Source: Candidatus Methylumidiphilus alinenensis (lineage in GTDB: Bacteria > Pseudomonadota > Gammaproteobacteria > Methylococcales > Methylococcaceae). From it: a DNA stretch of 64,000 nucleotides. Shown here piece by piece: positions 13,395 to 54,667 of this stretch. Each line of letters opens with the position of its first letter. Within the stretch, counting starts at the first letter, position 1. Location of the stretch: the NCBI GenBank assembly GCA_003242955.1, contig QJPH01000143.1, forward strand, positions 15,679 to 79,678, read 5' to 3'. The translations under genes were made by a program, and so were the position numbers. The notes under the pieces were generated by a model. That model was given only the letters and a program-made list of their open reading frames with translations. It was not told the DNA's origin and searched no databases.

Positions 13395-13453
13395 ACAGAA
13401 TCCTTATCAAGTTTAATTAAGCGATGCGCTTAGTTAAGGGAAAGCCGTTTCCC

Positions 13454-16680: not shown

Positions 16681-16928
16681 AGTATATTCCTTCCATAATC
16701 CAATGGGCGGTAGAAATCTTCATCATCGCCAACATCCGGCATGGCAGCCAACAAGGCTTTCAATGCCTCTCCCTCTGCACTGTCGGTGGTCTGTTCCGAT
16801 GGTTTAGGGGGGCTATGCATGTTTTCGTCGAGTAGCAACAACACGCGCAGCATCACCCCATCCGGCACGATATCGGGGACATGGATGGTGTGCTGGTGGG
16901 CAATGGCTTCAAATTCGATGGCTTGCAT
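16677..16928 (-). CDS. Hypothetical 83-aa acidic protein, translationally coupled to the VbhA-like gene
   Basis: ORF MQAIEFEAIAHQHTIHVPDIVPDGVMLRVLLL... shares an ATGA overlap with the downstream gene. No motif is recognisable. It could be an antitoxin-like or regulator protein. Confidence 0.4.
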   Translation of the reverse strand: MQAIEFEAIAHQHTIHVPDIVPDGVMLRVLLLLDENMHSPPKPSEQTTDSAEGEALKALLAAMPDVGDDEDFYRPLDYGRNIL

Positions 16929-16952
16929 GGTTTGCCTCCTGAATTAAATTTT

Positions 16953-17219
16953 GATCGTTCCCACGCTCCAGCGTGGGAATGCAGCCTTTACCGCTCCAGC
17001 GGTTCGATACCTCCGACGCTGGAGCGTCGCCGGAGGCATTCCCACGCAGAGCGTCAATGCCATTAAGTTAAGCCGTCATTCCGGCATGGACCGCCGGAAT
17101 CCAGATTGCAGGGATGCCAACAATCTATGCCATCCATGGAGCCTAGGTTCCGGCGAACCCTGCCGGAACGACAAGTTTTTTCTTAACTTAATGGCAGTGA
17201 CGCAGAGCGTGGGAACGAT
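16953..17219. mobile_element. Composite: family B inverted-repeat element (about 111 bp) interrupted by a family A MITE
   Basis: The B termini are GATCGTTCCCACGCTC / GAGCGTGGGAACGAT. The right terminus is split by the insertion at 17054-17200. Related B sequence occurs at 35633-35690, 36085-36115, 37046-37085 and 37355-37440. Confidence 0.75.
17054..17200. mobile_element. MITE family A, 147-bp copy nested in element B with a perfect 9-bp target-site duplication
   Basis: TIRs are TCAATGCCATTAAGTTAAG / CTTAACTTAATGGCAGTGA. The direct repeat CGCAGAGCG lies at 17045-17053 and again at 17201-17209. Confidence 0.9.
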
Positions 17220-17256
17220 ACCATTGTAGCCGGGACGGGGCTTCTTTCGTCAACCC

Positions 17257-19758: not shown

Positions 19759-19835
19759 TGGTCGGGGTGAGAGGATTCGAACCTCCGGCCACTGCCTCCC
19801 GAAAGCAGTGCTCTACCAGGCTGAGCTACACCCCG
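19759..19835 (-). tRNA. tRNA-Pro (anticodon CGG)
   Basis: The reverse complement CGGGGTGTAGCTCAGCCTGGTAGAGCACTGCTTTCGGGAGGCAGTGGCCGGAGGTTCGAATCCTCTCACCCCGACCA folds as a cloverleaf. The acceptor stem has 7 bp, the anticodon loop is TTCGGGA, the T-loop is GGTTCGAATCC, and CCA is encoded. Confidence 0.9.
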
Positions 19836-35842: not shown

Positions 35843-36007
35843 GGTGATTTCCAATAATGAATCCACCAAAACCGAAATGAATTGTCCACGAGAATCACAA
35901 ACACCTTCTTCGCAAATCACCTTGCCAAGCTGGAGCTTGGCGTTCCTTCTGGGAGCGCCAAGCACCAGCTTGGCCTTTGGATGGGATGTTCTTTATTGGA
36001 TATTACC
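35843..36007. mobile_element. MITE family D, 165-bp copy in inverted orientation
   Basis: TIRs are GGTGATTTCCAATAA / TTATTGGATATTACC. The TTA duplication lies at 35840-35842 and 36008-36010, which is the reverse complement of the TAA seen at the other two copies. Confidence 0.85.
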
Positions 36008-36122
36008 TTACCGTCCATGGCCTGGATTTCGGCATCCATGCCGAAATGACGGATTTTCCGGTTTGGCTGGACTTGTGTATAACGACGAACGCTGGAGCGT
36101 GGTAACGATAAAAACTAAAGAG

Positions 36123-37031
36123 ATGAACATGACAGCCAGACACAGAAAACTTATCAGTTTTGATTGGGCGATCAAGAAAATTCTTCGCAGCAAAGCTAAC
36201 TTTTGCGTGTTAGAAGGTTTTTTAAGCGAATTGCTGTTTGATGATATAACAATTAAAGAAATCCTTGAAACTGAGAGCAATAAAAATTCTAGGGAAGATA
36301 AATTCAATCGCCTGGATATTAAAGTAAAGAATTCAAAAGATGAAATAATAATCATTGAAATTCAATACGGTCGTGAACTGGATTATATGCAAAGAATGCT
36401 GTATGGCTCGGCAAAAGCAATTACTGAATATATTAAAGAATCTGACCCTTATTCAAAAATAGTCAAAATTATTTTAATAAACATATTATATTTTGATTTA
36501 GGCGAGGGCGATGATTATATTTATAAAGGCATAACTTCATTCATAGGTTTGCATAATCAAGGTCAATTAAAGCTGGATAGCAATCAAGCGAAGCTGTATA
36601 AAACGGATAAAATAGAGGCAATTTATCCTGAATATTATTTAATTAAGGTCAATAATTTTAACGATATTGCGAAAGACAGCTTGGATCAATGGATTTATTT
36701 TTTAAAAAATGAAGAGGTTAAGGATGATTTTAAAGCGAGGGGATTGGATAAAGCGAAAGAGATTTTGGATTATTTGAAATGCTCTGATGAAGAAAAAAGA
36801 GACTATGAATACTATAAAGAATCTTTGCATTATCAAGCCAGTATGTATGAATCGACCTATGTGGTTGGGAAAATAGATGGAAAAACAGAGGCTTTTATTT
36901 TATTATTAAAAAGTCGCTTTGGACAATTAACCACTGAGCAAATTGAAAAAATTAAATCGCTGGGTGATGAAAAACTTAACCAAGTTTTACAGAAACTTTG
37001 GACTGCGCAAAGTTTTCAGGAATTATTCTAA
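36123..37031 (+). CDS. Rpn-family recombination-promoting nuclease / putative transposase (PD-(D/E)XK)
   Basis: Very AT-rich. The start is set at ATG 36123 (MNMTARHRKLISFDWAIKKIL). The nuclease core is RLDIKVKNSKDEIIIIEIQYGRE. The first 93 codons of the tracked ORF (from 35844) are MITE read-through. Confidence 0.7.
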   Translation: MNMTARHRKLISFDWAIKKILRSKANFCVLEGFLSELLFDDITIKEILETESNKNSREDKFNRLDIKVKNSKDEIIIIEIQYGRELDYMQRMLYGSAKAITEYIKESDPYSKIVKIILINILYFDLGEGDDYIYKGITSFIGLHNQGQLKLDSNQAKLYKTDKIEAIYPEYYLIKVNNFNDIAKDSLDQWIYFLKNEEVKDDFKARGLDKAKEILDYLKCSDEEKRDYEYYKESLHYQASMYESTYVVGKIDGKTEAFILLLKSRFGQLTTEQIEKIKSLGDEKLNQVLQKLWTAQSFQELF

Positions 37032-39386: not shown

Positions 39387-41213
39387 CTACGGTTTTATAA
39401 GTAGGCGAATATCGGGATTGGCGTACATCGTATAGAGAAGTCCTAGTGGATTTCGGTGACGCTTCAACAATTCCCACTTAGCATAATATATGGCTTCACC
39501 TAGCGGGTCTCCACGCAATAGGGATTGGTAAAATATTTTAGAGAATTCGCTGGCAAATCGGTCTGGAATTCTTTCTTCCGTGCCGATGTATCCTCGGTTG
39601 TTATTTGTATTCAAAAAGAACTTAGGAAATGGGTTAGGTGCAAATGAGTCATTATCAGTGCTACCACAAGCATTGAGAAAGATGATGGGTTTGGAAGATT
39701 TGGATTTATATTCTACTCGGTTATATACAAAATGCTTTTGAAGGTCGCCGATACTTGCTTGCAATGTTGATGAAAAACACAGTTTCGATTCGTTTGAGTC
39801 AGCCGGTTCACAAACTTGGCAATGACAGACGAAGTGTTGAATTTGATCGGGACGGCTTTGCATTTCCCCGTTGAAGCGCAGGAACGGATTTTGAAGATGT
39901 TTGGCTAGATTGCCGCGAAAAACACTAGCATCCAGATATTCGCCTGGCCAAGGCCCTTCCAGTTCGAGAAATTGATCATGATCCTTAAAAAACTCCCAAT
40001 TAGATTTAGCTACATGGAGTTCCTGATGGTGGAAATACTTTAGCGGCAGAACGGGGTCATTATCCAAAATCAAATCCTCACTAACATTAGCATCGGATAG
40101 TTCACGATATACCACGCTTGAAAAGCCAGGAAAGCGGCATAAAGCTAGTCGTAATTCGTCATAATTGGCAACGGGCAACCATTCAGTATTATTAAATAAT
40201 GGTAAAAACTCGATAGGTAAAATATCATTAGATTCACCTGACATAACAATCAATGAAGGGGAATTACTGTCATGATTCCATTTTGGACAGCATCTACGAA
40301 AAGTTTTGACTACCTCAGAATCTTGACCATTAAAAAGTATCGATAGGAGTTCGTTTCCAGCGCAATTCAATTCAGACAAGGCTTTGTTTAGTTGATTAAA
40401 TTCGACCTGTAGACCTTCATTTTTCCCTATTTTGATGAGCTTGCGCAAAGCTTTTCGCAAGTTTATTAATTTTGATTTTGTTTCTGAATCATCCAATCTA
40501 TAGGGTAGACAAATTTTTTGTTTGTGAGGTCCGGTAATTAATATTTCATGTAAACTACGCTCATCAACAATATTCGAAATTCTGAGTGTACTTACCATAC
40601 TAGCCCTTTCCGGCTTTTGATCGATGTTTTGATCAAGTTCCCGGTCATTTATGGATTGTGAGGTAAGGCAGGGTAAGTTGTTGACGGTTTTAATAATCTG
40701 CTGAAAGAGTTCTAGGGCGAACTTATCGCGTGTACTTTTTGTTCTGGCATCTTGAAATGTTTTCAGATTTTTATCGGTTTTTAAATGAAAGATTTGCTGC
40801 TTTTCTAGCCCTTTCAGGTCCATGATGCCATCGAACAGAATTGGTGTTAAGGCGACAGGTATTACCCGCTTCCCTGTGTTCGGCACTGCAATGTTAATGG
40901 GGACAAAGGCTGGTAATTCGTGGTTTTCAATATACTCGCTGCCTAAAAAATTCGGACTGACCAGTAACAGACCGAAATGGCAACCAGCGACAGCCGCCTG
41001 AATCTTTTCATGCCAATCTTCTCCAGCTATAATATCCTCATCATCCCAAGCTTCAAAATTGTACTCTTTAGAAATTTTAAGACATTGCTTTAGAGGTTTA
41101 AGTAATTTTTCTTTGAGTTCTTTATCTTCATGTGAATAGGATATGAAATAACGGATTACAGTTTTATTATTACCAGGCTCTTTTAATATAAAAGTTTTCG
41201 ATGATTCATTCAT
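39387..41213 (-). CDS. TIR domain - CHAT (caspase-like protease) domain fusion protein, 608 aa
   Basis: The TIR region runs from about aa 18 to 135 (VIRYFISYSHEDKELKEKL ... LLLVSPNFLGSEYIENHELPAF, candidate catalytic Glu at E96/E99). The CHAT-like C-terminal region (about aa 320-608) has ILPIEFLPLF, a His-box QIQHFVCHC (H460/H464) and a Cys-box PIIFLNACGS (C516). Assignments are by motif only. Confidence 0.7.
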   Translation of the reverse strand: MNESSKTFILKEPGNNKTVIRYFISYSHEDKELKEKLLKPLKQCLKISKEYNFEAWDDEDIIAGEDWHEKIQAAVAGCHFGLLLVSPNFLGSEYIENHELPAFVPINIAVPNTGKRVIPVALTPILFDGIMDLKGLEKQQIFHLKTDKNLKTFQDARTKSTRDKFALELFQQIIKTVNNLPCLTSQSINDRELDQNIDQKPERASMVSTLRISNIVDERSLHEILITGPHKQKICLPYRLDDSETKSKLINLRKALRKLIKIGKNEGLQVEFNQLNKALSELNCAGNELLSILFNGQDSEVVKTFRRCCPKWNHDSNSPSLIVMSGESNDILPIEFLPLFNNTEWLPVANYDELRLALCRFPGFSSVVYRELSDANVSEDLILDNDPVLPLKYFHHQELHVAKSNWEFFKDHDQFLELEGPWPGEYLDASVFRGNLAKHLQNPFLRFNGEMQSRPDQIQHFVCHCQVCEPADSNESKLCFSSTLQASIGDLQKHFVYNRVEYKSKSSKPIIFLNACGSTDNDSFAPNPFPKFFLNTNNNRGYIGTEERIPDRFASEFSKIFYQSLLRGDPLGEAIYYAKWELLKRHRNPLGLLYTMYANPDIRLLIKP

Positions 41214-41261: not shown

Positions 41262-42812
41262 TTACAAGGCTAAGTTGACAGTCAGAGTTTGAATGAGTCG
41301 TGTACCCTGTAAAACTTGGACATAAATACGATGATTGGTAATAGAATCATCAATTGATTTCAAGGTGAAATTCAGTTCGGGGATTAAGTCATGGGCCTCT
41401 CTTTCCAGCTTTATTATCTGCCTACTAGTTGTGGCTTGTAATGTTTCAGAATACAAGAAAACAGTAAACTCAACCTCGGGAGTGTCTTGCCCGTCGCGAA
41501 CAACAATTTTCTCATAACAGGCTGAACTAGAATCAGATATATCAATGGGCTGCTCTTGAGTAAATTGAACCCGCATTGTCCATGTTTTCTCAGCACTATC
41601 AGCCTCCGAACCATTGTCAACAAAAATTTCTGCCGCAACATAGCCAGAGTAATTGCTTAGTTGAGGGCCTTGAAAATAGTCAGACAGTTGCTTTATTGAC
41701 TCTGCTTGTTGTTGAAGAATTTCGGTTAAGCGACTTTCAGAAATCATGCCTGTAGGTGTTTGACTGCCTGTATCCATGATGGCCTGTAGTTGCTTGGCAA
41801 GTTTAAATTGCTTTTCAAAGACATGCTGATAAATAGGATTTCTGATGGCACACACGCCTTGGTTATCCCGAATGCACCCTTGCAGGTAGAGGTCTCTGAT
41901 AATCTTGCTGCTTAATGAAAATGGCAGGTTAGCTCCATTGAGGATGGCTTCCAATACTTTGGTAAGGTTTGAATTCAGTTTATCAGTTCCGAAAAGATTA
42001 GATACCATGGTTTGAATATGGGTGGTACTGTCTAGGCCAACATTTTCTAAAAATTCAGAAAGTTTGTCTAACTGATCGTCTATTTCCTTGCTGTCGAGCT
42101 TGTAAAGATGATGGCAAACATATTGAACTAGATACGGATGACCTAAAGTGGTCTCATATATCTTGCTAATTTGAATTTCGGAGAATTTATCATCCGATAG
42201 ACGTGTAATGAGTCCTTGGGTTTCTGATGGAGTGAAATCTGGAAGATAGATTTTTTCTGCTATATTGAATGGAGAGATTAGGTAATTTTCTTCCATGGTC
42301 AAATCTCCTAAATCGGTTGAACCAGCAATTACAAATACATGTTTGTGCTTACTTTTGTCAACGAAACTTTCCATATAATACGCTCGTATGTGTCGCAATA
42401 ATTCAGCTGCAACTTCTCTGTTGGGGCATATTTCATCGATAAGGAATATTATTGGTTTGTTATTATGTAATAACCTAAAATAATCAATTATCCTATCTGG
42501 TGTAGTGCTGTCATAGTGATATATAAGGTGTTTGGTTTTACTCCAGAACTCATGTGTGACTTCTTTAATATCATAAAAACCACATGCTTCTAAATTGATA
42601 TGAATATATATATATTTATCAGTAAACTCACTATCTAGCGCATTAAGTAAAGTGGTTTTCCCTGTTTGCCTAGAAGCCATTATGGATATGCATGTCTTAG
42701 AATTAATATCATCATAAATCTCTTTAACTATTTTTTCTCTAGTTACCGATTTATCTTTTAATATTGGGCTTGTATACACAAATGGATTGGTGGTATTTTC
42801 TAAAGTATTCAT
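41262..42812 (-). CDS. AAA-like (ORC/Cdc6-type, Pfam AAA_35-like) P-loop ATPase with an uncharacterised C-terminal domain, 516 aa
   Basis: Walker A is IMASRQTGKTTLLNAL, Walker B is PIIFLIDEI, and the motif TTLGHPYLVQYVCHHL follows. The last ~170 aa (from about SNYSGYVAAEIFVDNG) look beta-rich with no recognisable motif. There is an 8-nt gap to the upstream gene. Confidence 0.65.
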   Translation of the reverse strand: MNTLENTTNPFVYTSPILKDKSVTREKIVKEIYDDINSKTCISIMASRQTGKTTLLNALDSEFTDKYIYIHINLEACGFYDIKEVTHEFWSKTKHLIYHYDSTTPDRIIDYFRLLHNNKPIIFLIDEICPNREVAAELLRHIRAYYMESFVDKSKHKHVFVIAGSTDLGDLTMEENYLISPFNIAEKIYLPDFTPSETQGLITRLSDDKFSEIQISKIYETTLGHPYLVQYVCHHLYKLDSKEIDDQLDKLSEFLENVGLDSTTHIQTMVSNLFGTDKLNSNLTKVLEAILNGANLPFSLSSKIIRDLYLQGCIRDNQGVCAIRNPIYQHVFEKQFKLAKQLQAIMDTGSQTPTGMISESRLTEILQQQAESIKQLSDYFQGPQLSNYSGYVAAEIFVDNGSEADSAEKTWTMRVQFTQEQPIDISDSSSACYEKIVVRDGQDTPEVEFTVFLYSETLQATTSRQIIKLEREAHDLIPELNFTLKSIDDSITNHRIYVQVLQGTRLIQTLTVNLAL

Positions 42813-42820
42813 AACGACAC

Positions 42821-45800
42821 CTATTTAGGGTATATTTCACTGATTCGTTCGAGTAAACTGACAGCCGTCAACTCAACTTCGATGTGTTTTCCAAGAATGA
42901 AAGGCAGGTCAGGCAGGACAAAACTATACAGAATGCTTTCCGGTTCGTGCTTGAGGATAGTTGCTAAAACTAATTTCTTCATCAGATTAGCGATTTCTTT
43001 ATCACTCAAATTAACATCATATATTTCTAGCAAACGTTGTAATTCAAAAGGTGTAAACTTATTGCCAAGTTCATATTTTTCCCTTTCATTAGCATATTTA
43101 CGAGTTATTTTACTGTAAGCTATGCGGTCAATAATAATTTTACCTAGTTTCTTATCAAAACAAGCCATCATTAAATAAAGTAATAGCTTGGATTGATCAT
43201 CCAAATTATACAAATAAACTTCAATCATATGTTCGCAAAATGTTGTAGAATTAATCACTTTGTCAATGTCATCGCGACTAATTTCCCTCACTTTGCGTAT
43301 CTTGTCAATACGAATTATTTTCGCGCAGCAAAACTGAATGAAGTTGGGATAACAAGCTGTTTTCTCGGTGATATATCTTATGTTATTTTTGTCAATAGTG
43401 AGAATGTTCTTAAAAGGTTCATCAATCAGTGCCATGGCATCTTTTTCAGCCAAAGATCCGAGTTCTAGTTTTTCCAAAAAATTAAACAACGGCGATTGGA
43501 TGTCATGCATCCGGAAGTAGAGTTCGCGGTAGCCGGCTACAACAATCTTGACTGAGGCTTCATTAATCAGTGCCCTTAAGGTTCTTGAAAATGTCTCACC
43601 CGTTGGCAGCAGATCATCCAATTCGTCGAGGAAAAGTACCAGCTTGCATTTATGGCTTTTACAGTAATCATCTACCTGGGTGATAAAATCGGCTATGGCA
43701 TTAAATGCAGTGGTTATTTCCAATTTTCGAAACAACCCCTTCCCCCATTCCAAAATATCGGAACCGTACGGGCTACAATCTAGATAGACAGTTTTGAAAT
43801 GTTTGCGTTTGTCGATCTCATCTTTGATACGCATCAATAAAGAAGTCTTGCCTATGCGTCTAGGGCCAATGATGGCATAACATTTTTTGTTGGGTTGCAG
43901 GATAGAATTTATAATAATTTGGGTTTCATTTTCTCGACCATAGAACATTTCCCTGACCGGGCCGGCAATTTGGAAAGGGGACAAGGCAACGAGATTGACC
44001 TGTCCAACCAGCAAAGACAGGAGTTCCTCATGGGGATTGTTGGCAAGAAGAATATTCTTTAAATCCTGGTAATCTAGCACGGCAGTCGAAAAGCTTAGTG
44101 ATTCATTTTTCAGCGTCGTTGTTATAAATTCTATCCTCTCTGGTGCAATAACTAGGACAATCCTCCAATTAGTCGTGGATTTAATCCAATGATTTACCGT
44201 GCTGTAGTCAGTGCCTTTCAACACAGTAACAAGTATGCAATCAAAACCATGAAATTTGATAGATGGAATTTTAATTTCAAAAACTTCCAAATGTGGTTGT
44301 AAGTTTAGAGGAACGGGTACGCGTTCTTGGAATAATACCTTGACGGTGGCGCAGAGTATTTCCAGATGGTTTTGCCTGAGCAATTCTTTTTGTTTCTGAT
44401 TGGCTTCATATTTTGAATTAAGTGCAATCGAAAGGTGGACAAGATTCGCCCACTGTTCTGGGTTTATCAAAAGAAAATCAGTTACCCAAGGTAGTTGTTT
44501 TTCTTTATTCAAGGCTACATCAATTTTACATACATCAATAAGCTTGATTGCTGCAATCAGCTCTTGCCGATGTTCAAGTGCTGTTTTGAAGACATCTTGG
44601 TGAGTTGAAATCCAGTGGGCATAACCGCTATCTTGCAACAAGTAATGGCTTTCTTTTTGTTCAACGTGGCTAACGATTAGTTTTAGAGCCTCCAAAGATT
44701 GGACACCCAGCAAGACATTGTCTTTTGGAAAAAAATGCTTGATTCTATGCAGCTTATCGTGAATGCCGGTAAGTTCAGCCCCGCCGAGGGACAGGGCTAT
44801 CAAGACCATTTTCTCCGCCAACGTATGTTTAGCCCATAATAGAGCATATCCCTTTTCCTGATTGCAAATAGTTTCCAACTCTTTAAGGTAATTTGGACTG
44901 ACCACTCGGTAGCGGTTGACAAGCCCCTGAGCGAGTGCAACGATAATTTCTTGACCCGTTCCATTATTGGCTAAACTATGCACTGCCGTAGGCATATCGG
45001 CTAAAAATAGTTCTTTGGTTTTTTCGCCTTCTAGGGATAGGAATATCAAACTACGTTGCCGTGTGCCTATGATAATTTCTTGGCTACCCTTATAAGTCTT
45101 GCCTAAAGCTATCGAAATTAGCTGCCTGTCTATGTTGTTAATGATGCAAAATCTCGACTTCTCGCCATCAGCATGGACACTGTAAATCGAATCAGGGGTT
45201 AATACATAAAAATGCGGATTGCCTTGCTCGTTTTCAATGCAGACCCAATCCAGCACATTGACGGAATCGCCTAGCTCCAACCATGGCTGCTTGAATGGGT
45301 CAGCCTGTGTTTCAGGTTGATTTAGAAAATCGTTGATATTTTGCATACGATAGATGCAACCTGTCACCGTGATGACATAAAAAGTTATTTTATCCTTAGC
45401 AACTTTTAATTCCATCTTGATAGGAATGGCTGGCAACGTAAACTCCCTACGCTGTACATTGCCAGCCTGGATAACGATGTCATTATTCACTAGCCCGCAT
45501 GCCAAATAATCTTGGCCTTGGTGGTGGAGTGCCGTTAAACAGCAAATTGCCTTGCTATAACTGGCAAAGGGTTTATCCATGTCAAGATAATCAAAAGAGT
45601 CAAGCTTAAAAACGTCTGAACCGTTTCCTATGAAATATTGTTTTTTGCTACCATGGATAAGGACGATGTGTATTTCTGTATCATTAAAATGTTTTTTATC
45701 AATTCTGCCCTTGTCTATCCTATAAAGATCACCTTCTGAACTTGCTAGTATAATCCTGTTGCCACCATCAATGGATGAGATGAACTCGATATTCTCTAGT

Positions 45801-47479
45801 CTGAGGTGTGATTCCAACAAATCCATCCCAATCAATTTTAAATTGTCTAATTGTTTGTAGGCATCGGGAAATAAACCTTCCGAAGATAATCGTTTTATGT
45901 CCTCACTACGCCGGATCGGTAAATCCTTCCAACGAATTTTCTCTTCTGTGAATTCTTTGAATTGACCTAGAAAATCATTACCACTGCCAATAACATTATT
46001 GATTTTTTCTAATTCAAAGCATATTTGCTCACAAGTAGGTAAGTTTTGATATTTTTTATATAATCTTTCAATAAATTCAAATGTGTAACGTATAAGAATT
46101 TTTTCATTTTGATATTTTTTTAATAAATAACCCAATTTTTGTAAAATTTGTAAATTAACGTCATAAACCTGCTGTTCTTCAATAGATTGTAAAAACTCCA
46201 CAACTTGATGGCAATCCATTTCCCGCTCAAGGACATCCATTCCATATCGGGCTACTGCGGGATATTTTGACTCACTGAACCAATTTAGAATCTCTTTGTT
46301 TCCATGACTTTTTTTCAAATCATTAAATGCTTGTGCAATTTTTTTATTGATGGTGGAACCTATATATATCTTGAAAACTTGCAATTTGCCATTGGCCAAC
46401 CCTGCAATAACCCGCTTCTTATCCAACTGCCTAATATTACCAGCCCACAACGCGGTTACCCGATGTTCGGTGGGATATTCCCATTTGATACGCAACTCAC
46501 GTCTGTCAGGATCAACGGCAAATACATAGATGCGGTTGCTGGCACCTCCAACTAATATTTCTAGTATGCCATCGTTGTCAATATCGTCACAATATAAGGA
46601 ATGAAACTTATCGGCACATTTGATCGAGTATTTTAATTGCGTCGTGTGTAGATCATAGATGTCCAGTTTGCCATTGGAAGCACAAGCAATAATGCTTTCG
46701 CTACCTTCATTATCGGGATCGGCTACTTGGACGCAAATATATAAGCTCGAATGGGCAAAACTTCGAGGTGTCATATTTATATACCCATGCGGATTGATGT
46801 CGTATACGATAATCCCTCCCCCATGCATAATACCTACCAGATGGGAGTCTTGTATAGTGTTTGCATCAGTAGGTGAAGGCAAGTCGTCAATTTGAAAGTG
46901 TTGGATATTTTTTAGAGTGTCTAGTTCTTGATCCGGTTTGTTAGGTGAAAAAGGGCTAAAGCGATAAATTTTATTATTCGATGCCGCCAAATATAGGTGT
47001 GAATCCTTGTAAATTATACAATAGATTTCCAAATCATCTTCTTGTTGTCTTGGTATACCAATGATTGAGCGTAAGTCAGCTGAAAGTTTATTACCTTGTC
47101 TCGAAAAATGATAAATGGCAGGCGGTGCATTCTTTTTATAAGCAACGAGCATGGCGGAATGTGTACTTGCCCCCCTGCCATATTTAAAAAAACGTAATTC
47201 TTGGAAGCCACTAGGATTGTCAAGTTGTACAATTTTTTGCAGGTTCTCACCACAGGAGTATATCTTGCATCTACCATATGTAGTGATAATGTTCACCTCT
47301 TTGGTGGTGTTGTTATCGATATCGACGGCTTCAATGGCAATAACACCCCCATGACAGTGAATTTCATCAATCAGATCAAGTTTGTGTTCTTTAACAAGTA
47401 AAAACTTCTGGATCGCTTTAAAATACTCCTGATGAGATAAATCTTCTTTCCCTGCACCAACTAAATTATGCTGTATCAT
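42821..47479 (-). CDS. Giant (~1552 aa) protein: N-terminal FG-GAP-like beta-propeller, helical linker, second propeller-like region, C-terminal P-loop ATPase plus helical/wHTH-like tail
   Basis: An FG-GAP-like blade CDDIDNDGILEILVGGASNRIYVF lies at ~46560-46600. Repeated strand patterns occur (ACASNGKLDIYDL, AGLANGKLQVFKI, LASSEGDLYRID). The ATPase lead-in is SPFQIAGPVREMFYGRENE, Walker A is YAIIGPRRIGKTSLL (Lys codon 43847-43849), and Walker B is LVLFLDELDD. I prefer ATG 47479, preceded by GGAGG, over the tracked TTG at 47494. Confidence 0.65.
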   Translation of the reverse strand: MIQHNLVGAGKEDLSHQEYFKAIQKFLLVKEHKLDLIDEIHCHGGVIAIEAVDIDNNTTKEVNIITTYGRCKIYSCGENLQKIVQLDNPSGFQELRFFKYGRGASTHSAMLVAYKKNAPPAIYHFSRQGNKLSADLRSIIGIPRQQEDDLEIYCIIYKDSHLYLAASNNKIYRFSPFSPNKPDQELDTLKNIQHFQIDDLPSPTDANTIQDSHLVGIMHGGGIIVYDINPHGYINMTPRSFAHSSLYICVQVADPDNEGSESIIACASNGKLDIYDLHTTQLKYSIKCADKFHSLYCDDIDNDGILEILVGGASNRIYVFAVDPDRRELRIKWEYPTEHRVTALWAGNIRQLDKKRVIAGLANGKLQVFKIYIGSTINKKIAQAFNDLKKSHGNKEILNWFSESKYPAVARYGMDVLEREMDCHQVVEFLQSIEEQQVYDVNLQILQKLGYLLKKYQNEKILIRYTFEFIERLYKKYQNLPTCEQICFELEKINNVIGSGNDFLGQFKEFTEEKIRWKDLPIRRSEDIKRLSSEGLFPDAYKQLDNLKLIGMDLLESHLRLENIEFISSIDGGNRIILASSEGDLYRIDKGRIDKKHFNDTEIHIVLIHGSKKQYFIGNGSDVFKLDSFDYLDMDKPFASYSKAICCLTALHHQGQDYLACGLVNNDIVIQAGNVQRREFTLPAIPIKMELKVAKDKITFYVITVTGCIYRMQNINDFLNQPETQADPFKQPWLELGDSVNVLDWVCIENEQGNPHFYVLTPDSIYSVHADGEKSRFCIINNIDRQLISIALGKTYKGSQEIIIGTRQRSLIFLSLEGEKTKELFLADMPTAVHSLANNGTGQEIIVALAQGLVNRYRVVSPNYLKELETICNQEKGYALLWAKHTLAEKMVLIALSLGGAELTGIHDKLHRIKHFFPKDNVLLGVQSLEALKLIVSHVEQKESHYLLQDSGYAHWISTHQDVFKTALEHRQELIAAIKLIDVCKIDVALNKEKQLPWVTDFLLINPEQWANLVHLSIALNSKYEANQKQKELLRQNHLEILCATVKVLFQERVPVPLNLQPHLEVFEIKIPSIKFHGFDCILVTVLKGTDYSTVNHWIKSTTNWRIVLVIAPERIEFITTTLKNESLSFSTAVLDYQDLKNILLANNPHEELLSLLVGQVNLVALSPFQIAGPVREMFYGRENETQIIINSILQPNKKCYAIIGPRRIGKTSLLMRIKDEIDKRKHFKTVYLDCSPYGSDILEWGKGLFRKLEITTAFNAIADFITQVDDYCKSHKCKLVLFLDELDDLLPTGETFSRTLRALINEASVKIVVAGYRELYFRMHDIQSPLFNFLEKLELGSLAEKDAMALIDEPFKNILTIDKNNIRYITEKTACYPNFIQFCCAKIIRIDKIRKVREISRDDIDKVINSTTFCEHMIEVYLYNLDDQSKLLLYLMMACFDKKLGKIIIDRIAYSKITRKYANEREKYELGNKFTPFELQRLLEIYDVNLSDKEIANLMKKLVLATILKHEPESILYSFVLPDLPFILGKHIEVELTAVSLLERISEIYPK

Positions 47480-47487
47480 GCGTGATG

Positions 47488-47492
47488 CCTCC
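47488..47492 (-). promoter_or_regulatory. Shine-Dalgarno (GGAGG) for the giant ATPase gene
   Basis: GGAGG on the minus strand lies 8 nt upstream of ATG 47479, inside the 21-nt gap after the GH57-like gene stop. Confidence 0.55.
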
Positions 47493-47500
47493 AAGGTTTA

Positions 47501-48859
47501 TTAGGTGTTGTTGATATTCCGAAGCTCATGGTAATCAATCGCTTGTTTGATGGAGTTTAACCAAGGCAATATTCTTTTCTTAAAATCGGAGTCTGTATTC
47601 AATTTTGCCAGGGATTTATCCAGTTCAGAATTGAGTTCTTCTTGTGTGCGCTGGTGTATCGCCCACATCAGTTGCGTGTAAATCTCTTGACCTGCTTTCA
47701 GTAGCTCATAATTATCCATTAGGGAAGCAGTCAAATACAGTGTCCGCATTTGTAAATCAATGCCCTCATAGATTCGCTCTGGATTCCAAAACCAGATCGA
47801 AGCCCAAAAGTATTGGGTTGAATAAAATGCCCGGTCCAACAAATCGCGTAGTTTATTTAATCCAGAGTGTTGTTCATCACCCTCGATATTGAAATTAATG
47901 TTTGAATTAGCATCCCATATCAGATCGGTCAGCTTCCAAAGGTTTTCATGGATAGGATTGTCTTTGGATTTCCACAAGGGGTAGTAATCTCCCCTTTTAT
48001 AGTTATCCGGCTGAGTTGCCCAAGAGCAGGGTGGAAAATACTCAAAGATTTGTCCAACTTCTTTGGGTTTTTCAATCTTGCTTAGACCTTTGATGTTGAG
48101 CAGATCGGACACCAAGCATAATTCTACAGAATCTGATTTCGATAATTTACACAGCATGTCCCTCAGAAAAGTCTCCTGATAATATTTAACATGATGACCA
48201 AAGGTTTCCCCGGATATGGCAATGATAGTGTAGCAGTCTTGCTGTTGCAGTTGAATTTCAGCCTCCATTTGTCGAACAAACTCCCGACCCGTCAGATGAT
48301 GCCCATTTTTAATACGATTGCTCCATAGTTCACTCCTCATGAACACTGCAATGTCGTTGACATGGTAAATTTCGTGTTGAGGAATCCTTATCCCATTTAT
48401 TTCCATCACGCAATCATCAATAATCGTCCATTGAAAGCCCATCTCTTGATATAAAGGTAAAAGTTTGTCGTGATAGCACATTTCAGGAGAAAAAATACCC
48501 GATGTTGTAGTAACTCCGAAATGTTCGGACTTTAAATCCTTATCTAATGCAATTTGTCGTTTGACTTCTTGGTCTGGTAACAATGGAAAGATGGGATGGT
48601 AAGCCCCGGTATGGATCATTTCTATTTTGCCGAACTTAACCGCCTGTTTAAGCCCTTCTATGACTTTGTCTTTACGGAATTCGATTAATAAGCTGGCTAA
48701 AGAATTGGCAAGGGAAACGGTGAATTTGGCATTGGGTTTGGAATTGAATAGTTCCACTAGGGGTTGGTAACACTCACGGGTCACCTCGTCGATGACTTTG
48801 TCGTTTTGTGATGAAGGTTGAAATAAATCCAGTAAAAACGCCACATACATTTTAGCCAT
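47501..48859 (-). CDS. GH57-like protein, paralogue 2 (probably non-catalytic), 452 aa
   Basis: GH57-type regions are present: GKIEMIHTGAYHPIFPLL, GIFSPEMCY and YSTQYFWASIW. However, region I is DLFQP (His replaced by Asp) and region IV is IIAISGETFGHH (the acid/base Asp replaced by Ser, codon checked in the DNA). TAATG gives a 1-nt overlap with paralogue 1. Confidence 0.65.
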   Translation of the reverse strand: MAKMYVAFLLDLFQPSSQNDKVIDEVTRECYQPLVELFNSKPNAKFTVSLANSLASLLIEFRKDKVIEGLKQAVKFGKIEMIHTGAYHPIFPLLPDQEVKRQIALDKDLKSEHFGVTTTSGIFSPEMCYHDKLLPLYQEMGFQWTIIDDCVMEINGIRIPQHEIYHVNDIAVFMRSELWSNRIKNGHHLTGREFVRQMEAEIQLQQQDCYTIIAISGETFGHHVKYYQETFLRDMLCKLSKSDSVELCLVSDLLNIKGLSKIEKPKEVGQIFEYFPPCSWATQPDNYKRGDYYPLWKSKDNPIHENLWKLTDLIWDANSNINFNIEGDEQHSGLNKLRDLLDRAFYSTQYFWASIWFWNPERIYEGIDLQMRTLYLTASLMDNYELLKAGQEIYTQLMWAIHQRTQEELNSELDKSLAKLNTDSDFKKRILPWLNSIKQAIDYHELRNINNT

Positions 48860-50049
48860 TAGCGGTTCTCCAAAAGATGTCTTTTATTCTCAATTGCGGT
48901 CACCAATTCCCTAAATAATTTCTCGCCTTTGCCAATATCATCATCATTACCGGTCATCACCCAAGCCTTTTGCAGAATGCGCATCAAATTGAATGCCCCC
49001 TTGTAAATTTCCTGTGAATTCTCAGGTTTGTCGAATTTCCAATAGTTGGCCCACCAGAACTGACAAGAGTAAAGGGCTTTGTCCATATCCCCATTCAAGT
49101 TTTTATCGTTCAAGCGTCGCACATTGTCCAGTACAAGGTCACAAAATTGCCATTGCAAGGTATGGATGGGATTTTTATGGCTTTTCCACCAAGAAAAATA
49201 ATCCCGGTTGTCAATGTCGGCACGATCTGTAGACCAGGAGCCGGGCGGGATAAACTGGGTTACCTGCTTGAAATGATGAAAGATTTCTGCCAAGTGGGCG
49301 GTTCGTATCTCATCCTTATGCTGGTCAAAAGCAGCAAACATTTCACTAAGAAACACTTCGCTATATTTATGTTGATGATGACCAAAAGTTTCCCCATCCA
49401 GCGCGATGATCAGATAGCCGTCTTGGTCCCCCATCCATTGTTTCATGGAAGCCAGCAACTCTTCGACAAATTCCTGCCCATGGACCCAGTTGTTATCGTT
49501 ATTGGCAAAGCGGTTGGACCAATGGTTGCTACGCAACAACACCCCTAATTCATCTTGGCAGTAAACGGTGTCAAACGGAACTTCGATGCCATAATAGTCC
49601 AGATTGCCATCGTCGGCGATAGTCCACTGATAACCGAGGGATTTTAGCTGGGAAGCCAGATTGCCGGTGAAGGCCAATTCAGGAGAAAAGACTCCTTGTG
49701 GATTGAATTCAGCTGTCAATAAACGCTGATTGCCTTCATGGTTTAGCCGTATCTGCCGTTCCACTTCTTCATAAGGTATCAATGGGAAGATAGGGTGGTA
49801 AGCCCCGGTTTCGGTCAACTCCAAAATTCCTTCGTCATGCGCGGCGCGGATATTCTCAAGTATCTGCGGAAATGGATCGTGGAGTAATTCGACAAGACTG
49901 TAGTTGATGTTCAAGGTGAATTTCAAGCCGCTGGCTTCCCTGATTTTACGCGTCAGCGGTTCGTAGCTCTCCCGTACAATTTTAGCCAGCATATCAAATT
50001 CTTGTACAGGTGGCTGGTAGATGTGAAACAGAAAGTTGACAAATTTCAT
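48859..50049 (-). CDS. GH57-like glycoside hydrolase, paralogue 1 (catalytic motifs intact), 396 aa
   Basis: The start is set at ATG 50049 (MKFVNFLFHIYQPP). Regions are HIYQP, GILELTETGAYHPIFPLI, GVFSPELAF (nucleophile Glu), IIALDGETFGHH (acid/base Asp) and YSCQFWWANYW. The 55 upstream codons of the tracked ORF are MITE read-through. Confidence 0.7.
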   Translation of the reverse strand: MKFVNFLFHIYQPPVQEFDMLAKIVRESYEPLTRKIREASGLKFTLNINYSLVELLHDPFPQILENIRAAHDEGILELTETGAYHPIFPLIPYEEVERQIRLNHEGNQRLLTAEFNPQGVFSPELAFTGNLASQLKSLGYQWTIADDGNLDYYGIEVPFDTVYCQDELGVLLRSNHWSNRFANNDNNWVHGQEFVEELLASMKQWMGDQDGYLIIALDGETFGHHQHKYSEVFLSEMFAAFDQHKDEIRTAHLAEIFHHFKQVTQFIPPGSWSTDRADIDNRDYFSWWKSHKNPIHTLQWQFCDLVLDNVRRLNDKNLNGDMDKALYSCQFWWANYWKFDKPENSQEIYKGAFNLMRILQKAWVMTGNDDDIGKGEKLFRELVTAIENKRHLLENR

Positions 50050-50056
50050 CAATAAT

Positions 50057-50061
50057 CTCCT
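50057..50061 (-). promoter_or_regulatory. Shine-Dalgarno (AGGAG) for the first gene of the AT-rich operon
   Basis: The minus strand reads AAAGGAGATTATTGATG, with AGGAG 7 nt upstream of ATG 50049. Confidence 0.55.
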
Positions 50062-50117
50062 TTGACTGCAATAGCTAGGTTGCCTTGGGAACAGGCTTGA
50101 TCCAGTGATTTTTACGC

Positions 50118-50196
50118 CGTCATTACAAAAGGCTTGTCGTCGCTTGAGGTTTGCCATCCCTGGACGCTGGATTCCTGCATCCATGCCGGAATGACG
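50118..50196. repeat. Degenerate family C hairpin-module element just upstream of the operon
   Basis: CGTCATTAC...CTGGATTCCTGCATCCATGCCGGAATGACG. It is related to the elements at 50363-50503 and 58498-58636. Confidence 0.6.
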
Positions 50197-50362
50197 GGCC
50201 CGGCGTAATTTCAAGCATTGCCGAGTTTGTGTGCATCACGTTTAATCGTACCCACCTTTCGCAAAAAATCCACCGGACGTACAATAGGAATATTACCATA
50301 ACTGCCAAGTGTCAACAGATCATGGTCGCCGGACACAGCAATTCTCATTTTGGCTAGAACGC

Positions 50363-53683: not shown

Positions 53684-53762
53684 GGAGTGCAAGCCTTGCC
53701 TTGCCTGCACACGCCATCGCAAGGCAAGCCTTGCACTCCCGCATCACTTTTAATCGCACCCC
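53684..53762. repeat. REP-like hairpin element, family F, copy 2
   Basis: GGAGTGCAAGCCTTGCCTTGC ... GCAAGGCAAGCCTTGCACTCCCGCATCACTTTTAATCGCACCCC. Compare with 2079-2157. Confidence 0.8.
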
Positions 53763-54667
53763 TAGGGGGTTGCGGCTTTTTGGCTGGTGCGCCTAGGCTG
53801 GCGGGCCAGTTCCCGCAAATGCCAAGCGTCAGGATCGACTGCGCCCTCCAAGCGAGCTTCCTCGGCATCGTCGAGTTCATGGAAAAAATCAAATCCCGTG
53901 CGCTGCTCAATTGCATCTACGCTGGTCACATAATGGTCTAGGGGTTCGTCACCGCGCACCGTTTGCGGCATCACCAACGCCAGCATCTTTTTTGCCTCCG
54001 GGGCAACGATGATTGTGTAGAATGCATCGGGAACTTCAACCCGCCAAGAGGTGTGCAAGCGCTCGACCGGCGGGTCAAAAATCGGGCCGGCCATCACCCA
54101 GATTTTTCCGAATTGCTTAGCAAAGGGGTCCAATTCCACCTCTTCCAACCGTTCCCAAAGTTTGTTGCTTAGACCGGCCTTTTGCGGCACGGCGTTGGTC
54201 ATGCGCAAGGCATCCTTTTGCCCTTGCTTGCCGTAAATCAAGCCCATGGCATGAAAGGGTGCCAAATGACCAATTTCGTAACCGCTGCCGTTATAATGCT
54301 GCGGGGCTACACGGTTGATACCCCGCCAGTCAGACTTGAATTCTTCGGGCGACATCAGACTGGTTGCACCTTGTGGAGAGGGCATGAGCGCATAAGTGAC
54401 CCAAAGCGGATTTCCTCTCAGGTCAGAATATCCCAAGATAAACCCTTGGTTGCGCAAAGTACGGGCCCAAGTAAAGGGGTTCATCCTGTCCATGGGTTTG
54501 GGTTCCCCCATCCAGAACATAGGTGGGCGGGCGACATGGACCTCGAAAGCGTACCAAGCCCCAATCAGCAGACTGAGCGCCAACCAGGCACTAAAAGGCA
54601 TTAAGCCGCCTAAACGAAGAGCAAAAACAAGCATTGTCCAAATAGACAGGCGCCGTGATTTTTGCAC
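53762..54667 (-). CDS. DNA/RNA non-specific endonuclease family protein (membrane-anchored)
   Basis: N-terminal TM segment. The beta-beta-alpha-Me region is SGYEIGHLAPFHAM (a variant of DRGHLxP) followed by NAVPQ. Its 3' end abuts repeat F, so the exact C-terminus is uncertain. Confidence 0.6.
   Translation of the reverse strand: MQKSRRLSIWTMLVFALRLGGLMPFSAWLALSLLIGAWYAFEVHVARPPMFWMGEPKPMDRMNPFTWARTLRNQGFILGYSDLRGNPLWVTYALMPSPQGATSLMSPEEFKSDWRGINRVAPQHYNGSGYEIGHLAPFHAMGLIYGKQGQKDALRMTNAVPQKAGLSNKLWERLEEVELDPFAKQFGKIWVMAGPIFDPPVERLHTSWRVEVPDAFYTIIVAPEAKKMLALVMPQTVRGDEPLDHYVTSVDAIEQRTGFDFFHELDDAEEARLEGAVDPDAWHLRELARQPRRTSQKAATP

Follow-up and report, generated by a model that had tools for sequence, protein, structure and literature searches.

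A TIR domain joined to a CHAT-family protease in the effector slot of a five-gene ATPase operon of Candidatus Methylumidiphilus alinenensis

Introduction

What does a bacterial protein do that carries a TIR domain and a caspase-fold protease on the same chain? TIR NADases and caspase-fold proteases are two central executioner chemistries of bacterial, plant and animal innate immunity. To our knowledge, the only bacterial link between the two so far is type IV Thoeris, where they are separate proteins. A first-pass annotation of 64,000 nucleotides of genomic DNA from the methane-oxidising bacterium Candidatus Methylumidiphilus alinenensis (the window) had picked out one polypeptide with two effector-type domains, and had placed side by side autoproteolytic release of the TIR domain, dual-output killing, and the conversion of one domain into a regulatory or scaffolding module. 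Here we ask what the protein is made of, what surrounds its gene, and what fills the same place in related operons.

Results

One gene, one species-level cluster

The TIR::CHAT fusion gene (39387..41213, minus strand) is a single ATG-initiated open reading frame that fills this span exactly, and PZN84813.1, from Ca. Methylumidiphilus alinenensis, is the same 608-aa protein as its product. The protein consists of a TIR domain (aa 18-180), a disordered linker of 20-27 aa and a complete 400-aa CHAT protease. Since the same protein is encoded on 43 contigs and 11 distinct full-length alleles exist, the fusion is no assembly artefact. Two TIR haplotypes are present among the alleles; gene conversion from a paralogous TIR was considered as their source and rejected, neither haplotype being nearer to any sampled paralogue.

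Among the best 150 of 14,031 phmmer matches, from 1.84 billion protein representatives, TIR and CHAT are combined only in the fusion's own cluster. P0153, a candidate second TIR-CHAT protein on account of two matched stretches, was rejected as a double-TIR protein. A genome-collection scan with the fusion protein returned ten pattern matches, none of them confirmed; the phage collection held no match to the fusion, and the plasmid collection held stand-alone CHAT or TIR proteins only. As far as these searches reach, the TIR-CHAT fusion does not extend beyond one species-level cluster.

The TIR domain retains the catalytic glutamate

The TIR domain (aa 18-180; 40674..41162, minus strand) is defined by Pfam TIR_2, alignment to AbTIR, homologues and Foldseek. 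The TIR_2 profile (PF13676) matches aa 23-124 at E=1.7e-13, its 51.5 bits exceeding the gathering cut-off of 28. In the AF2 model, block-mean pLDDT over aa 11-100 is mostly 80-97, the last TIR helix spans aa 159-178, and Foldseek returns the TIR folds of TLR1, TRAM, RPPT, PdTIR, RUN1 and AbTIR.

The claim that this domain, with its FISYSHED motif (aa 23-30), retains the Glu expected for NAD+ cleavage was borne out. Glu99 (codon 40917-40919, minus strand), within an NHEL motif, aligns opposite the catalytic E208 of AbTIR and is invariant in 29 TIR homologues and 11 fusion alleles; the E208A variant of AbTIR is inactive (10.1101/2023.05.19.541320). The local motif reads Y94-x4-E99 instead of WxxxE, that is, Tyr for Trp plus a one-residue insertion, and the Trp position is Y or F throughout the clade. 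The Trp of WxxxE influences which cADPR isomer is produced, so product chemistry, and even activity, could differ from those of the characterised TIR NADases. By its residues the domain looks catalytically competent and would be expected to act as an NADase.

Among the matches listed, the nearest relatives of the domain reach 68% identity; in NACHT/TPR/WD40 and FGE-sulfatase proteins they form the N-terminal or terminal effector domain, and one comes from the same species. Free-standing TIR proteins of about 210 aa also belong to this clade (P0156 and P0157; 64-65% identity). The fusion's TIR is, judging from these relatives, a member of a clade that is usually N-terminal on NACHT/STAND immune proteins.

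A complete CHAT module follows

The remainder of the protein had been read as a CHAT-like caspase fold with a His box and a Cys box, and profiles, alignment and Foldseek all agree with this. The protease core (aa 319-608; 39390..40259, minus strand) reaches the last residue, 608. Its His box, QIQHFVCHC (aa 457-465), contains H460 and H464 (H464 codon 39822-39824) and its Cys box, IIFLNACGS (aa 510-518), contains C516 (codon 39666-39668). In the AF2 model these His and Cys residues come after strands 458-466 and 510-514, at the ends of adjacent core strands, and an alignment of 28 sequences shows no variation at H460, H464 or C516. H464 is the putative catalytic His, assigned over H460 by analogy to the HG motif. 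The core looks catalytically competent, and we would expect protease activity from it. The dyad is intact in 11/11 fusion alleles; with the fusion limited to one species-level cluster, this retention says little about selection.

On its own, the fusion scores 20.4 bits against CHAT (PF12770), below the gathering score of 24. The assignment is secured by its relatives and by structure: the ~400-aa homologues (E down to 1e-85) carry precomputed PF12770, the CHAT profile matches 28/28 aligned family members at E<=1e-3 (best 1.2e-14), and a profile match to SAVED-CHAT 8tl0 aligns the fusion's Cys box with the LNAC of 8tl0. Foldseek returns the Csx29 TPR-CHAT (8eey_B, E=2.9e-8), the separase protease domain (5fby, E=8.9e-8), SAVED-CHAT (8tl0, E=3.9e-7) and also DdvA (8rot), the main matches spanning E=3e-8 to 4e-6. 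A Pfam search found no PF00656 match in the fusion protein. Profiles and structure prediction, which the annotation had named as the check on its reading, recovered both folds together with the aligned TIR Glu and the aligned His/Cys dyad.

Between linker and core lies an N-terminal domain that is conserved in the CHAT family (aa 208-318; 40260..40592, minus strand), defined from the stand-alone homologues and the AF2 model. Its AF2 secondary structure shows a beta-meander of three strands and then three helices, and it is aligned in 26/26 stand-alone CHAT homologues. We regard it as a candidate docking surface for the C-terminal domain of the protein encoded upstream. In P0158 a member of the same CHAT family shares its chain with a Peptidase_C14 domain, a precedent for joining a second catalytic domain to this family.

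The linker is short

A lysine-rich, helical linker of ~180 aa (aa 140-320) had been proposed, and this did not hold up: aa 140-180 are still part of the TIR domain, and aa 208-318 are already part of the CHAT-family N-terminal domain. The inter-domain linker is aa 181-207 (40593..40673, minus strand), as bounded by pLDDT, homology and the DNA sequence; disorder is limited to aa 183-205 (pLDDT<50 in the AF2 model), and lysine makes up 9.9% of aa 140-320 vs 7.6% of the whole protein. The linker's basic residues are R191, K200 and R203. An SD-like GGAAAGGG precedes Met206 (40596-40598), which sits where stand-alone CHAT homologues begin.

We compared the linker with the Pepco proteins that accompany stand-alone members of the CHAT family. 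These partners carry a conserved (F/V)(T/K)(L/F)(K/S)R motif with an invariant C-terminal Arg, and they stop at this Arg or at most 9 residues past it, one of them having no tail at all. The sequence comparison found no cleavage motif common to the Pepco partners and the linker. The linker's PERAS was tried as a substrate site and rejected, being homologous to the extreme N-terminus of the stand-alone CHAT of L008.

Two ATPases and two GH57 proteins precede the fusion

The fusion gene is the last of a five-gene operon on the minus strand, in the order GH57, GH57, 1557-aa beta-propeller/STAND-like ATPase, 516-aa AAA_35 ATPase and TIR::CHAT. Promoter and terminator scans gave counts equal to the shuffled expectation.

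The gene directly upstream of the fusion (41262..42812, minus strand) encodes the 516-aa ATPase, identified by Pfam AAA_35 (E=2.9e-19), AF2 and Foldseek. Its aa 1-325 form a STAND/ORC-like ATPase with a winged helix, K52 being the Walker-A residue, and Foldseek matches the model to PAB2304/SSO1545 (PF01637 type), ORC/Cdc6, Avs3, Avs4 and NRC. Domain homology further delimits an all-beta C-terminal domain at aa ~376-516 (41265-41687, minus strand). An HMM of this domain matches only the protein encoded directly upstream of each CHAT gene, and the domain is common to otherwise unrelated sensors in this position, including one on a Streptomyces plasmid; the ATPase of L009 is without it, and L009 is also without CHAT. 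This co-occurrence suggests that the beta-rich domain is a docking domain for CHAT.

The 1557-aa protein (42821..47494, minus strand), assigned by Pfam and present in all sister loci, is the presumed sensor. One or more beta-propeller regions occupy its N-terminal part, and towards the C-terminus, at aa ~1184-1356 (nt ~43415-43957), lies a STAND-like P-loop ATPase that is paralogous to the ATPase of the 516-aa protein (26% identity, E=1e-8). In relatives, the large protein has nSTAND1, ATPase_2 and TniB matches. Its beta-propeller showed no homology to the 733-aa protein that precedes CHAT in L001; what the L001 protein shares is only the C-terminal domain of the AAA_35 ATPase.

The two GH57-family proteins head the operon, both assigned by Pfam and synteny: protein a, the product of the first gene, has up to 451 aa (48859..50214, minus strand; GH57 E=2.6e-28), and protein b has 452 aa (47501..48859, minus strand; E=3.7e-32). 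The start of protein a may lie a few codons downstream, as a close relative has 445 aa. Both proteins retain the nucleophile Glu, which in protein b aligns with the TLGT nucleophile E123.

Sister loci reveal a variable effector slot

The gene order is preserved around AAA_35 orthologues (29-36% identity) at L006, L007/L008, L009, L010, L082, L084, L085 and on the P0065 and P0068 contigs. These sister operons encode two GH57 proteins, a ~1550-aa beta-propeller/STAND-like ATPase and a ~500-aa AAA_35 ATPase, followed in most by a stand-alone CHAT. What comes at the end varies: CHAT with Pepco (L006, L007), CHAT with a clostripain-like Peptidase_C11 (L010, L084, P0068 contig), CHAT alone (L085), or, in L009, where CHAT is missing, a protein of 231 aa that has no Pfam match and contains hydrophobic, membrane-like segments. 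Only the Ca. Methylumidiphilus alinenensis locus has TIR::CHAT in this slot. The terminal-effector position first assigned to the fusion is therefore upheld both by its place at the end of an operon that encodes two ATPases and by the synteny of the sister loci.

Pepco follows the stand-alone CHAT gene directly in L001, L003, L005, L006, L007 and L086. A tblastn search of the 64-kb window with five Pepco sequences (PF24393) found no Pepco (best E=0.74), the 379 bp downstream of the fusion contain no ORF longer than 49 aa, and the C11 partner gene is also absent from the TIR::CHAT locus. Sequence comparison thereby puts the two domains on an unequal footing. One polypeptide with both domains stands, as described above; their standing as equivalent effector modules does not. 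CHAT, which occurs without TIR in every other locus recovered, is the ancestral and conserved module and would be the transducer, and TIR is a lineage-specific addition that coincides with the missing Pepco or C11 partner gene. The CHAT of L085 has no visible partner, so the protease may suffice as effector, which would weaken the argument that TIR replaces Pepco.

A low-GC island with mobile-element neighbours elsewhere

The operon lies in an island with a GC content of ~0.33-0.43, vs ~0.50-0.57 in the flanks. No tRNA or integrase was found at the island borders, the sole tRNA being a tRNA-Pro at 19759-19835. The neighbours of the sister loci include an integrase, a TacA/acetyltransferase (TacT-like) pair, and IS elements or a Y1 transposase. 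Scanning metagenomes with the alignment of the AAA_35 family yielded distant AAA_35 relatives only (21-32% identity), without GH57, CHAT or Pepco. On one short metagenome contig, L040, a TIR gene adjoins an AAA_35 gene.

PADLOC (PADLOC-DB 2.0) recognised no known system and gave domain-level matches only (ThsB-like TIR, PDC-S01/S27, mad8); the NCBIfam search gave nothing informative, and a literature search found no paper on a TIR-CHAT fusion or on the GH57-containing operon. With the operon absent from PADLOC-DB 2.0 and no describing paper found, its defence role rests on analogy. We take the operon to be rare, horizontally acquired and probably of the defence type.

Discussion

Sequence analysis alone cannot separate autoproteolytic release, dual output and a scaffold domain. 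The comparative data across the sister loci favour a reading in which TIR is a swapped-in, NAD+-depleting executioner and CHAT an activating or scaffolding module on an ATPase platform; this is the best-supported reading, and we lean towards it. The 608-aa protein would be the output module of the five-gene operon, its CHAT probably recruited to the ATPase platform via the beta-rich domain at the C-terminus of the AAA_35 protein. In the sister systems, CHAT would act on a separately encoded latent killer, either the Pepco pore-forming toxin or the clostripain-like C11 protease. TIR NADases are active only on self-association. Most likely, a trigger would cause the ATPases to oligomerise, which would cluster the CHAT modules and, by induced proximity, the TIRs tethered to them. 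Activated TIR would then hydrolyse NAD+ and growth would stop, as in abortive infection. The intact CHAT dyad may also cut the linker to free the TIR, or cleave other substrates. In related systems, Pepco is by experiment a protease-activated pore toxin (PMC12642450), and SAVED-CHAT is activated by filament formation and itself activates a second protease (10.1101/2023.06.23.546230).

Cleavage could also be the heart of the matter: activated CHAT would cut the linker, in cis or between neighbours, and the freed TIR would self-assemble and deplete NAD+, so that TIR takes the role of Pepco as proteolytic substrate and is inactive while tethered. We consider this unlikely, while giving weight to the fact that every partner in the sister loci is of a cleavage-activated type, be it Pepco (PMC12642450) or, by analogy, a C11/caspase-type protease. 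Consistent with cleavage, aa 183-205 of the linker are disordered and accessible in the model, the linker offers R191, K200 and R203, the bacterial caspase-like proteases characterised so far cleave after Arg, all alleles keep the dyad, and the stand-alone P0156 and P0157 suggest that a free TIR of this clade is a viable unit. However, we could identify no conserved cleavage motif and nothing in the linker is like the C-terminal motif of Pepco, its PERAS is homologous to the N-terminus of CHAT rather than to a substrate site, and oligomerisation on STAND scaffolds, rather than release, is the usual way in which TIRs of this clade become active. Clearly less probable still is that the two domains are independent outputs or CHAT the main killer, through broad proteolysis of host or phage proteins to which TIR adds NAD+ depletion, or that TIR has no catalytic part and serves for oligomerisation or as an adaptor. 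The partnerless CHAT of L085 fits a killing protease, as does the finding that an effector-less caspase-like protease can defend alone (PMC12642450); yet the CHAT proteases studied so far are substrate-specific. A non-catalytic TIR sits badly with the invariance of Glu99 and the FISY-H-D motif, which match active NADases, and a homotypic adaptor would find no other TIR among the operon's components.

Type IV Thoeris likewise has both a catalytic TIR and a cysteine protease of clan CD (Rousset et al., 10.1101/2024.10.24.620036). There the work is split between two proteins: the TIR protein senses and generates the signal, and the effector is a PF00656 caspase that carries a ligand domain at its C-terminus. 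The protease is activated by N7-cADPR (10.1101/2024.10.24.620036), and with both catalytic centres intact the fusion might operate on this principle in cis, its TIR making a cADPR-type messenger that allosterically activates CHAT as the real executioner. This we hold to be very improbable: the fusion is one polypeptide with a PF12770 CHAT that works without TIR in all other loci, it has neither a PF00656 caspase nor a C-terminal ligand-binding domain, and the two upstream ATPases, the likely sensors, are already able to provide activation. Least probable by far is a non-immune operon, a carbohydrate/glycogen regulatory or quality-control system in which protease and TIR have housekeeping signalling roles. 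Two conserved GH57 genes with the nucleophile Glu at the head of the operon, and the lack of a PADLOC system match, would agree with such a role; the patchy and rare distribution, the low-GC island, the mobile-element neighbours, the STAND-like architecture of the ATPases and a swappable output slot filled by known death effectors argue against it.

The reading of TIR as executioner and CHAT as scaffold places the locus near several known systems. Protease-Pepco (Trypco/Pepco; Kaur et al. 2020, PMC7159879; Evans et al. 2025 preprint, PMC12642450) follows the same logic of sensor, protease and latent killer, with swappable sensors. The stand-alone members of our CHAT family adjoin Pepco, whereas the window of the fusion has no Pepco and a fused TIR instead; the characterised example uses the trypsin-like protease of Avs4 rather than CHAT, and the GH57 and double-ATPase sensor context is not described in these papers (PMC7159879, PMC12642450). 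The best structural matches of the C-terminal part are SAVED-CHAT/PCaspase of type III-B CRISPR (8tl0; 10.1101/2023.06.23.546230) and the TPR-CHAT Csx29 (Craspase, 8eey), in both of which assembly on a sensor switches on CHAT as the initiator protease. The two-protease cascade of SAVED-CHAT/PCaspase is mirrored by the sister loci with CHAT and C11. The fusion differs from these systems in that its sensors would be STAND-like ATPases, not cOA/SAVED or Cas7-11, and its output the fused TIR.

The TIR itself leads to TIR-STAND or bacterial NLR-like proteins (NACHT, Avs) and TIR-SAVED, being 40-68% identical to the N-terminal TIRs of NACHT/TPR/WD40 proteins. Clustering of TIRs induced by oligomerisation is the mechanism expected there; in the fusion, TIR is not on the ATPase chain but, as we propose, tethered to a protease recruited in trans. 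An analogy, and nothing closer, may be drawn to the apoptosome (Apaf-1, caspase-9, executioner), where a STAND/AAA+ ATPase and beta-propeller sensor recruits a caspase-fold initiator via an adaptor; here the adaptor would be an unrelated beta-domain and the executioner a TIR NADase. One could extend this and see in GH57-GH57-giant ATPase-AAA_35-CHAT an undescribed, apoptosome-like immune system with an exchangeable output slot, with TIR as a protease-licensed pro-enzyme and the GH57 pair pointing to a glycan-type trigger or substrate. Taken as a whole, this picture strikes us as doubtful. We know of no glycan-type trigger or substrate in bacterial immunity. If the picture is true, the fusion would be the first natural TIR NADase kept as a protease-licensed pro-enzyme on its own activating protease.

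The analysis brings to light a conserved operon, as yet uncharacterised, that encodes two GH57 enzymes and a giant beta-propeller ATPase, and it identifies a candidate docking domain that may couple diverse sensors to the CHAT family. The fusion amounts to a natural effector-swap experiment, the same protease in its relatives unleashing a pore toxin or a second protease. As such it can show whether the protease scaffold controls TIR, by clustering or by cleavage, and how modular the design of sensor ATPase, adaptor, initiator protease and killer is.

Domain composition of the TIR-CHAT fusion

The TIR::CHAT gene is a single ATG-initiated ORF of 608 aa on the minus strand, at exactly the coordinates given in the first-pass annotation (39387-41213), and the motifs quoted there lie within it: FISYSHED at aa 23-30, QIQHFVCHC at aa 457-465 and IIFLNACGS at aa 510-518. 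Pfam detects TIR_2 at aa 23-124 (51.5 bits versus a cut-off of 28, E=1.7e-13). The TIR motif stretch at aa 82-100, which ends in NHEL, contains Glu99; this residue aligns opposite E208 of the AbTIR WxxxE motif and is invariant in 29/29 TIR homologues collected. The E208A substitution abolishes the NADase activity of AbTIR (10.1101/2023.05.19.541320). The WxxxE Trp position is Tyr94 in the fusion, with a one-residue insertion.

Taken alone, the fusion protein scores below the Pfam threshold for CHAT (20.4 bits versus 24, aa 456-587). The CHAT assignment is nonetheless secure: in the databases, aa ~208-608 come closest to ~400-aa proteins carrying PF12770 (E=1e-85 to 1e-48), CHAT is matched by 28/28 aligned family members (best E=1.2e-14), the family profile retrieves SAVED-CHAT (8tl0) from the PDB with the Cys box aligned, and Foldseek with the AlphaFold2 model (mean pLDDT 84.6, pTM 0.68) returns Csx29 TPR-CHAT (E=2.9e-8), separase protease domains and SAVED-CHAT, with TIR structures lower in the list. 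Peptidase_C25, another clan-CD family, is also matched by 9 of the 28 members. All 28 sequences share H460, C463, H464, C465, N514, A515 and C516. Both the catalytic-position Glu and the caspase-like fold with its His and Cys (H460/H464 and C516), as originally proposed, are thus borne out.

The ~180-aa lysine-rich helical linker assigned to aa 140-320 has to be given up. By model and homology boundaries, the TIR domain spans aa 18-180, its last helix being 159-178, and only aa 183-205 are disordered; from ~201-208 onward there is a conserved CHAT-family N-terminal domain, a beta-meander plus three helices, that aligns in every stand-alone homologue. Lysine makes up 9.9% of aa 140-320 versus 7.6% of the whole protein.

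Origin and alleles of the fusion

Homology to TIR donors ends at residue ~180, that to CHAT proteins begins at ~201-208, and Met206 lies within a few residues of the stand-alone CHAT protein start. The in-frame ATG of Met206 carries an SD-like GGAAAGGG at -5 with 5-nt spacing (40596-40620, including the upstream bases). Together these features fit the insertion of a TIR cassette in frame upstream of CHAT. GGAAAGGG looks like a relic ribosome-binding site, and Met206 may be the former start of the ancestral CHAT gene; internal initiation there may yield a free 403-aa CHAT. The nearest TIRs, 58-68% identical over aa ~14-180, are terminal domains of FGE-sulfatase, metallophosphatase, response-regulator and EAD9 proteins, the best match (P0025) being from the same species; TIRs at 40-50% identity are terminal domains of NACHT/TPR/WD40/pentapeptide proteins.

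The fusion matches PZN84813.1 of Candidatus Methylumidiphilus alinenensis at every residue; UniProt names it simply 'TIR domain-containing protein'. Its presence on 43 contigs, together with 11 distinct full-length alleles in public data, rules out an assembly or frameshift artefact. E99, H460, H464 and C516 are kept in 11/11 alleles.

Within aa 6-63 (41025-41198), 19 fully linked substitutions define two haplotypes among the 11 alleles, many of them charge swaps on TIR helix alphaA (E29K, E32K, K39E, K42E and others). Variable sites number 30 per 100 aa here versus about 3-4 in the CHAT part, and this 58-residue stretch holds 19 of the 23 differences between the window protein and its relative P0001 (binomial p about 2e-16). 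No sampled paralogue is closer to one haplotype than to the other. The pattern may stem from recombination from an unsampled allele, or from diversifying or balancing selection such as a phage inhibitor could impose.

The operon and its surroundings

TIR::CHAT follows four co-directional genes: two encoding GH57 proteins (48859-50214 and 47501-48859), one encoding a 1557-aa protein (42821-47494) that has matches to beta-propellers in its N-terminal part and ends in an AAA_22/AAA_35/TniB-type P-loop ATPase, and one encoding a 516-aa AAA_35 ATPase (41262-42812). In rising coordinate order the five genes are spaced by 48, 8, 6 and -1 nt. For the 1557-aa protein and the first GH57, the start codon was set by the longest ORF; the corresponding products of a close relative are 1552 and 445 aa. 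GC content is about 0.33-0.43 across the block versus about 0.50-0.57 in the flanking DNA. The ATPase modules of the two proteins are paralogues of each other (26% identity, E=1e-8). As modelled by AF2 (pLDDT 73.8), the 516-aa protein consists of ATPase, lid, winged-helix module and a nine-strand all-beta C-terminal domain, and Foldseek relates the protein to the archaeal ATPase_2 proteins PAB2304 and SSO1545, ORC/Cdc6, Avs3, Avs4 and plant NRC.

The two GH57 proteins are themselves paralogous (about 32% identical), and both keep the Glu aligned with the E123 nucleophile of T. litoralis 4-alpha-glucanotransferase. Every sister locus has conserved the pair, with identities of 47-59%. We are aware of no ATPase/protease system of the defence type in which a glycoside hydrolase plays a part.

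Elsewhere in the window, an Rpn-family/PDDEXK_2 'recombination-promoting nuclease/putative transposase' gene (35844-37031) sits in a separate low-GC islet (about 0.33), 2.4 kb away from the end of the island where TIR::CHAT lies, and a DNA/RNA non-specific endonuclease (Endonuclease_NS) gene (53762-54667, minus strand) lies about 3.5 kb past the upstream end. A type I restriction-modification system (10194-19485; HsdR 10194-13394, HsdM 17257-19485, three ORFs between) adjoins the only tRNA, tRNA-Pro (19759-19835).

Sister loci and the variable effector slot

Orthologues of the 516-aa ATPase (29-36% identity) lie in the same order of GH57, GH57, ~1550-aa protein and ~500-aa AAA_35, and what follows them varies: CHAT and Pepco (PF24393) in L006 and L007; CHAT and the clostripain-like Peptidase_C11 in L010 (12929-14191), L084 (4946-6241) and the P0068 contig; CHAT alone in L085; and CHAT at the contig end in the P0065 contig. 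L085 suggests that CHAT may suffice without a partner, and the C11-type loci suggest, by analogy, an initiator-to-executioner protease cascade like that from SAVED-CHAT to PCaspase. An IS-type transposase gene separates the large ATPase and AAA_35 genes in L010. L009, on a Ca. Kentrum sp. contig, has in place of CHAT a 231-aa protein with hydrophobic membrane-like segments and no Pfam match (11181-11876), followed by a UvrA-like gene. The stand-alone CHAT relatives in L001/L002, L003, L004/L005 and L086, a Streptomyces plasmid, always have a ~105-130-aa Pepco gene after them.

Among the compared loci, only the window and its alleles of at least 90% identity carry a TIR on CHAT. Searched exhaustively with phmmer, 1.84 billion representatives yielded 291 proteins at E<=1e-30; among the best 150, the query's own cluster alone combines the TIR and CHAT parts, and further, unrelated TIR+CHAT architectures may lie beyond these. 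P0158 has the same CHAT family fused C-terminally to a Peptidase_C14 caspase domain. The large protein belongs to a rare family, of which a 5.8-billion-sequence collection yielded eight clusters. On a short metagenome contig (L040, 692-1912), a stretch encoding a TIR, with 35% identity to aa 23-104 of the window TIR, directly follows or overlaps the end of a distant AAA_35 ATPase gene; such ATPases may thus be paired with TIR effectors elsewhere.

The CHAT part of the fusion genuinely belongs to the Pepco-associated CHAT family, but the defining feature of the protease-Pepco module is missing: the 64-kb window holds no Pepco (tblastn with five Pepco sequences, best E=0.74), and no ORF in the 379 bp downstream of TIR::CHAT exceeds 49 aa. 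The defining features of type IV Thoeris are likewise lacking in the locus. Neither the operon nor the fusion was found in PADLOC-DB 2.0 or the searchable literature.

A candidate coupling domain

The 516-aa ATPase ends in ~140 residues (41265-41687) homologous to the C-terminus (L001 7553-7975; 28% identity, E=3e-14) of an otherwise unrelated 733-aa protein encoded upstream of the stand-alone CHAT-Pepco pair in that locus. We searched an HMM of this all-beta domain, which matches no Pfam family, against all ORFs of 85 loci and the window. It matched only the protein encoded directly upstream of each CHAT gene; the 838-aa upstream protein on the Streptomyces plasmid is matched as well (aa 678-829, E=8e-19). 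The carriers are mutually unrelated: AAA_35 ATPases, BNR-like proteins and Streptomyces hypothetical proteins. In C11-type loci the domain diverges along with CHAT (L084, E=1.7e-5; L010, E=0.0019), and it is absent, as is CHAT, from L009, where the AAA_35 ATPase is truncated to 383 aa. This co-variation supports, without proving, physical coupling of the domain to the CHAT module.

Proposed mechanism

STAND ATPases oligomerise upon ligand binding. We propose that the large beta-propeller ATPase would sense a trigger and co-assemble with the AAA_35 ATPase, whose C-terminal domain would recruit and cluster CHAT. In sister systems the clustered, active CHAT would cleave Pepco or a C11 pro-protease; in the fusion system, clustering of the tethered TIR domains would deplete NAD+. 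We hold this scheme as a whole to be slightly better than an even bet. Filament assembly activates SAVED-CHAT, which in turn switches on a second protease, and the same source cites, for TIR-SAVED, a need for self-association to form the active site of TIR NADases (10.1101/2023.06.23.546230).

For the activation step we favour induced proximity over linker cleavage, since TIRs of this clade are normally carried by oligomerising scaffolds and there is no evident cleavage motif. The same two points weigh against a zymogen model in which linker cleavage activates the TIR, a less favoured but credible reading given the intact CHAT dyad and an accessible linker with R191, K200 and R203. Cis-signalling between TIR and CHAT of a Thoeris-IV-like kind is unlikely, because the CHAT family is TIR-independent elsewhere and has neither the PF00656 core nor the C-terminal ligand domain of the Thoeris-IV caspase. 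The logic of the system is, by analogy, that of a protease-effector module on a STAND-like sensor, with a putative role in defence.
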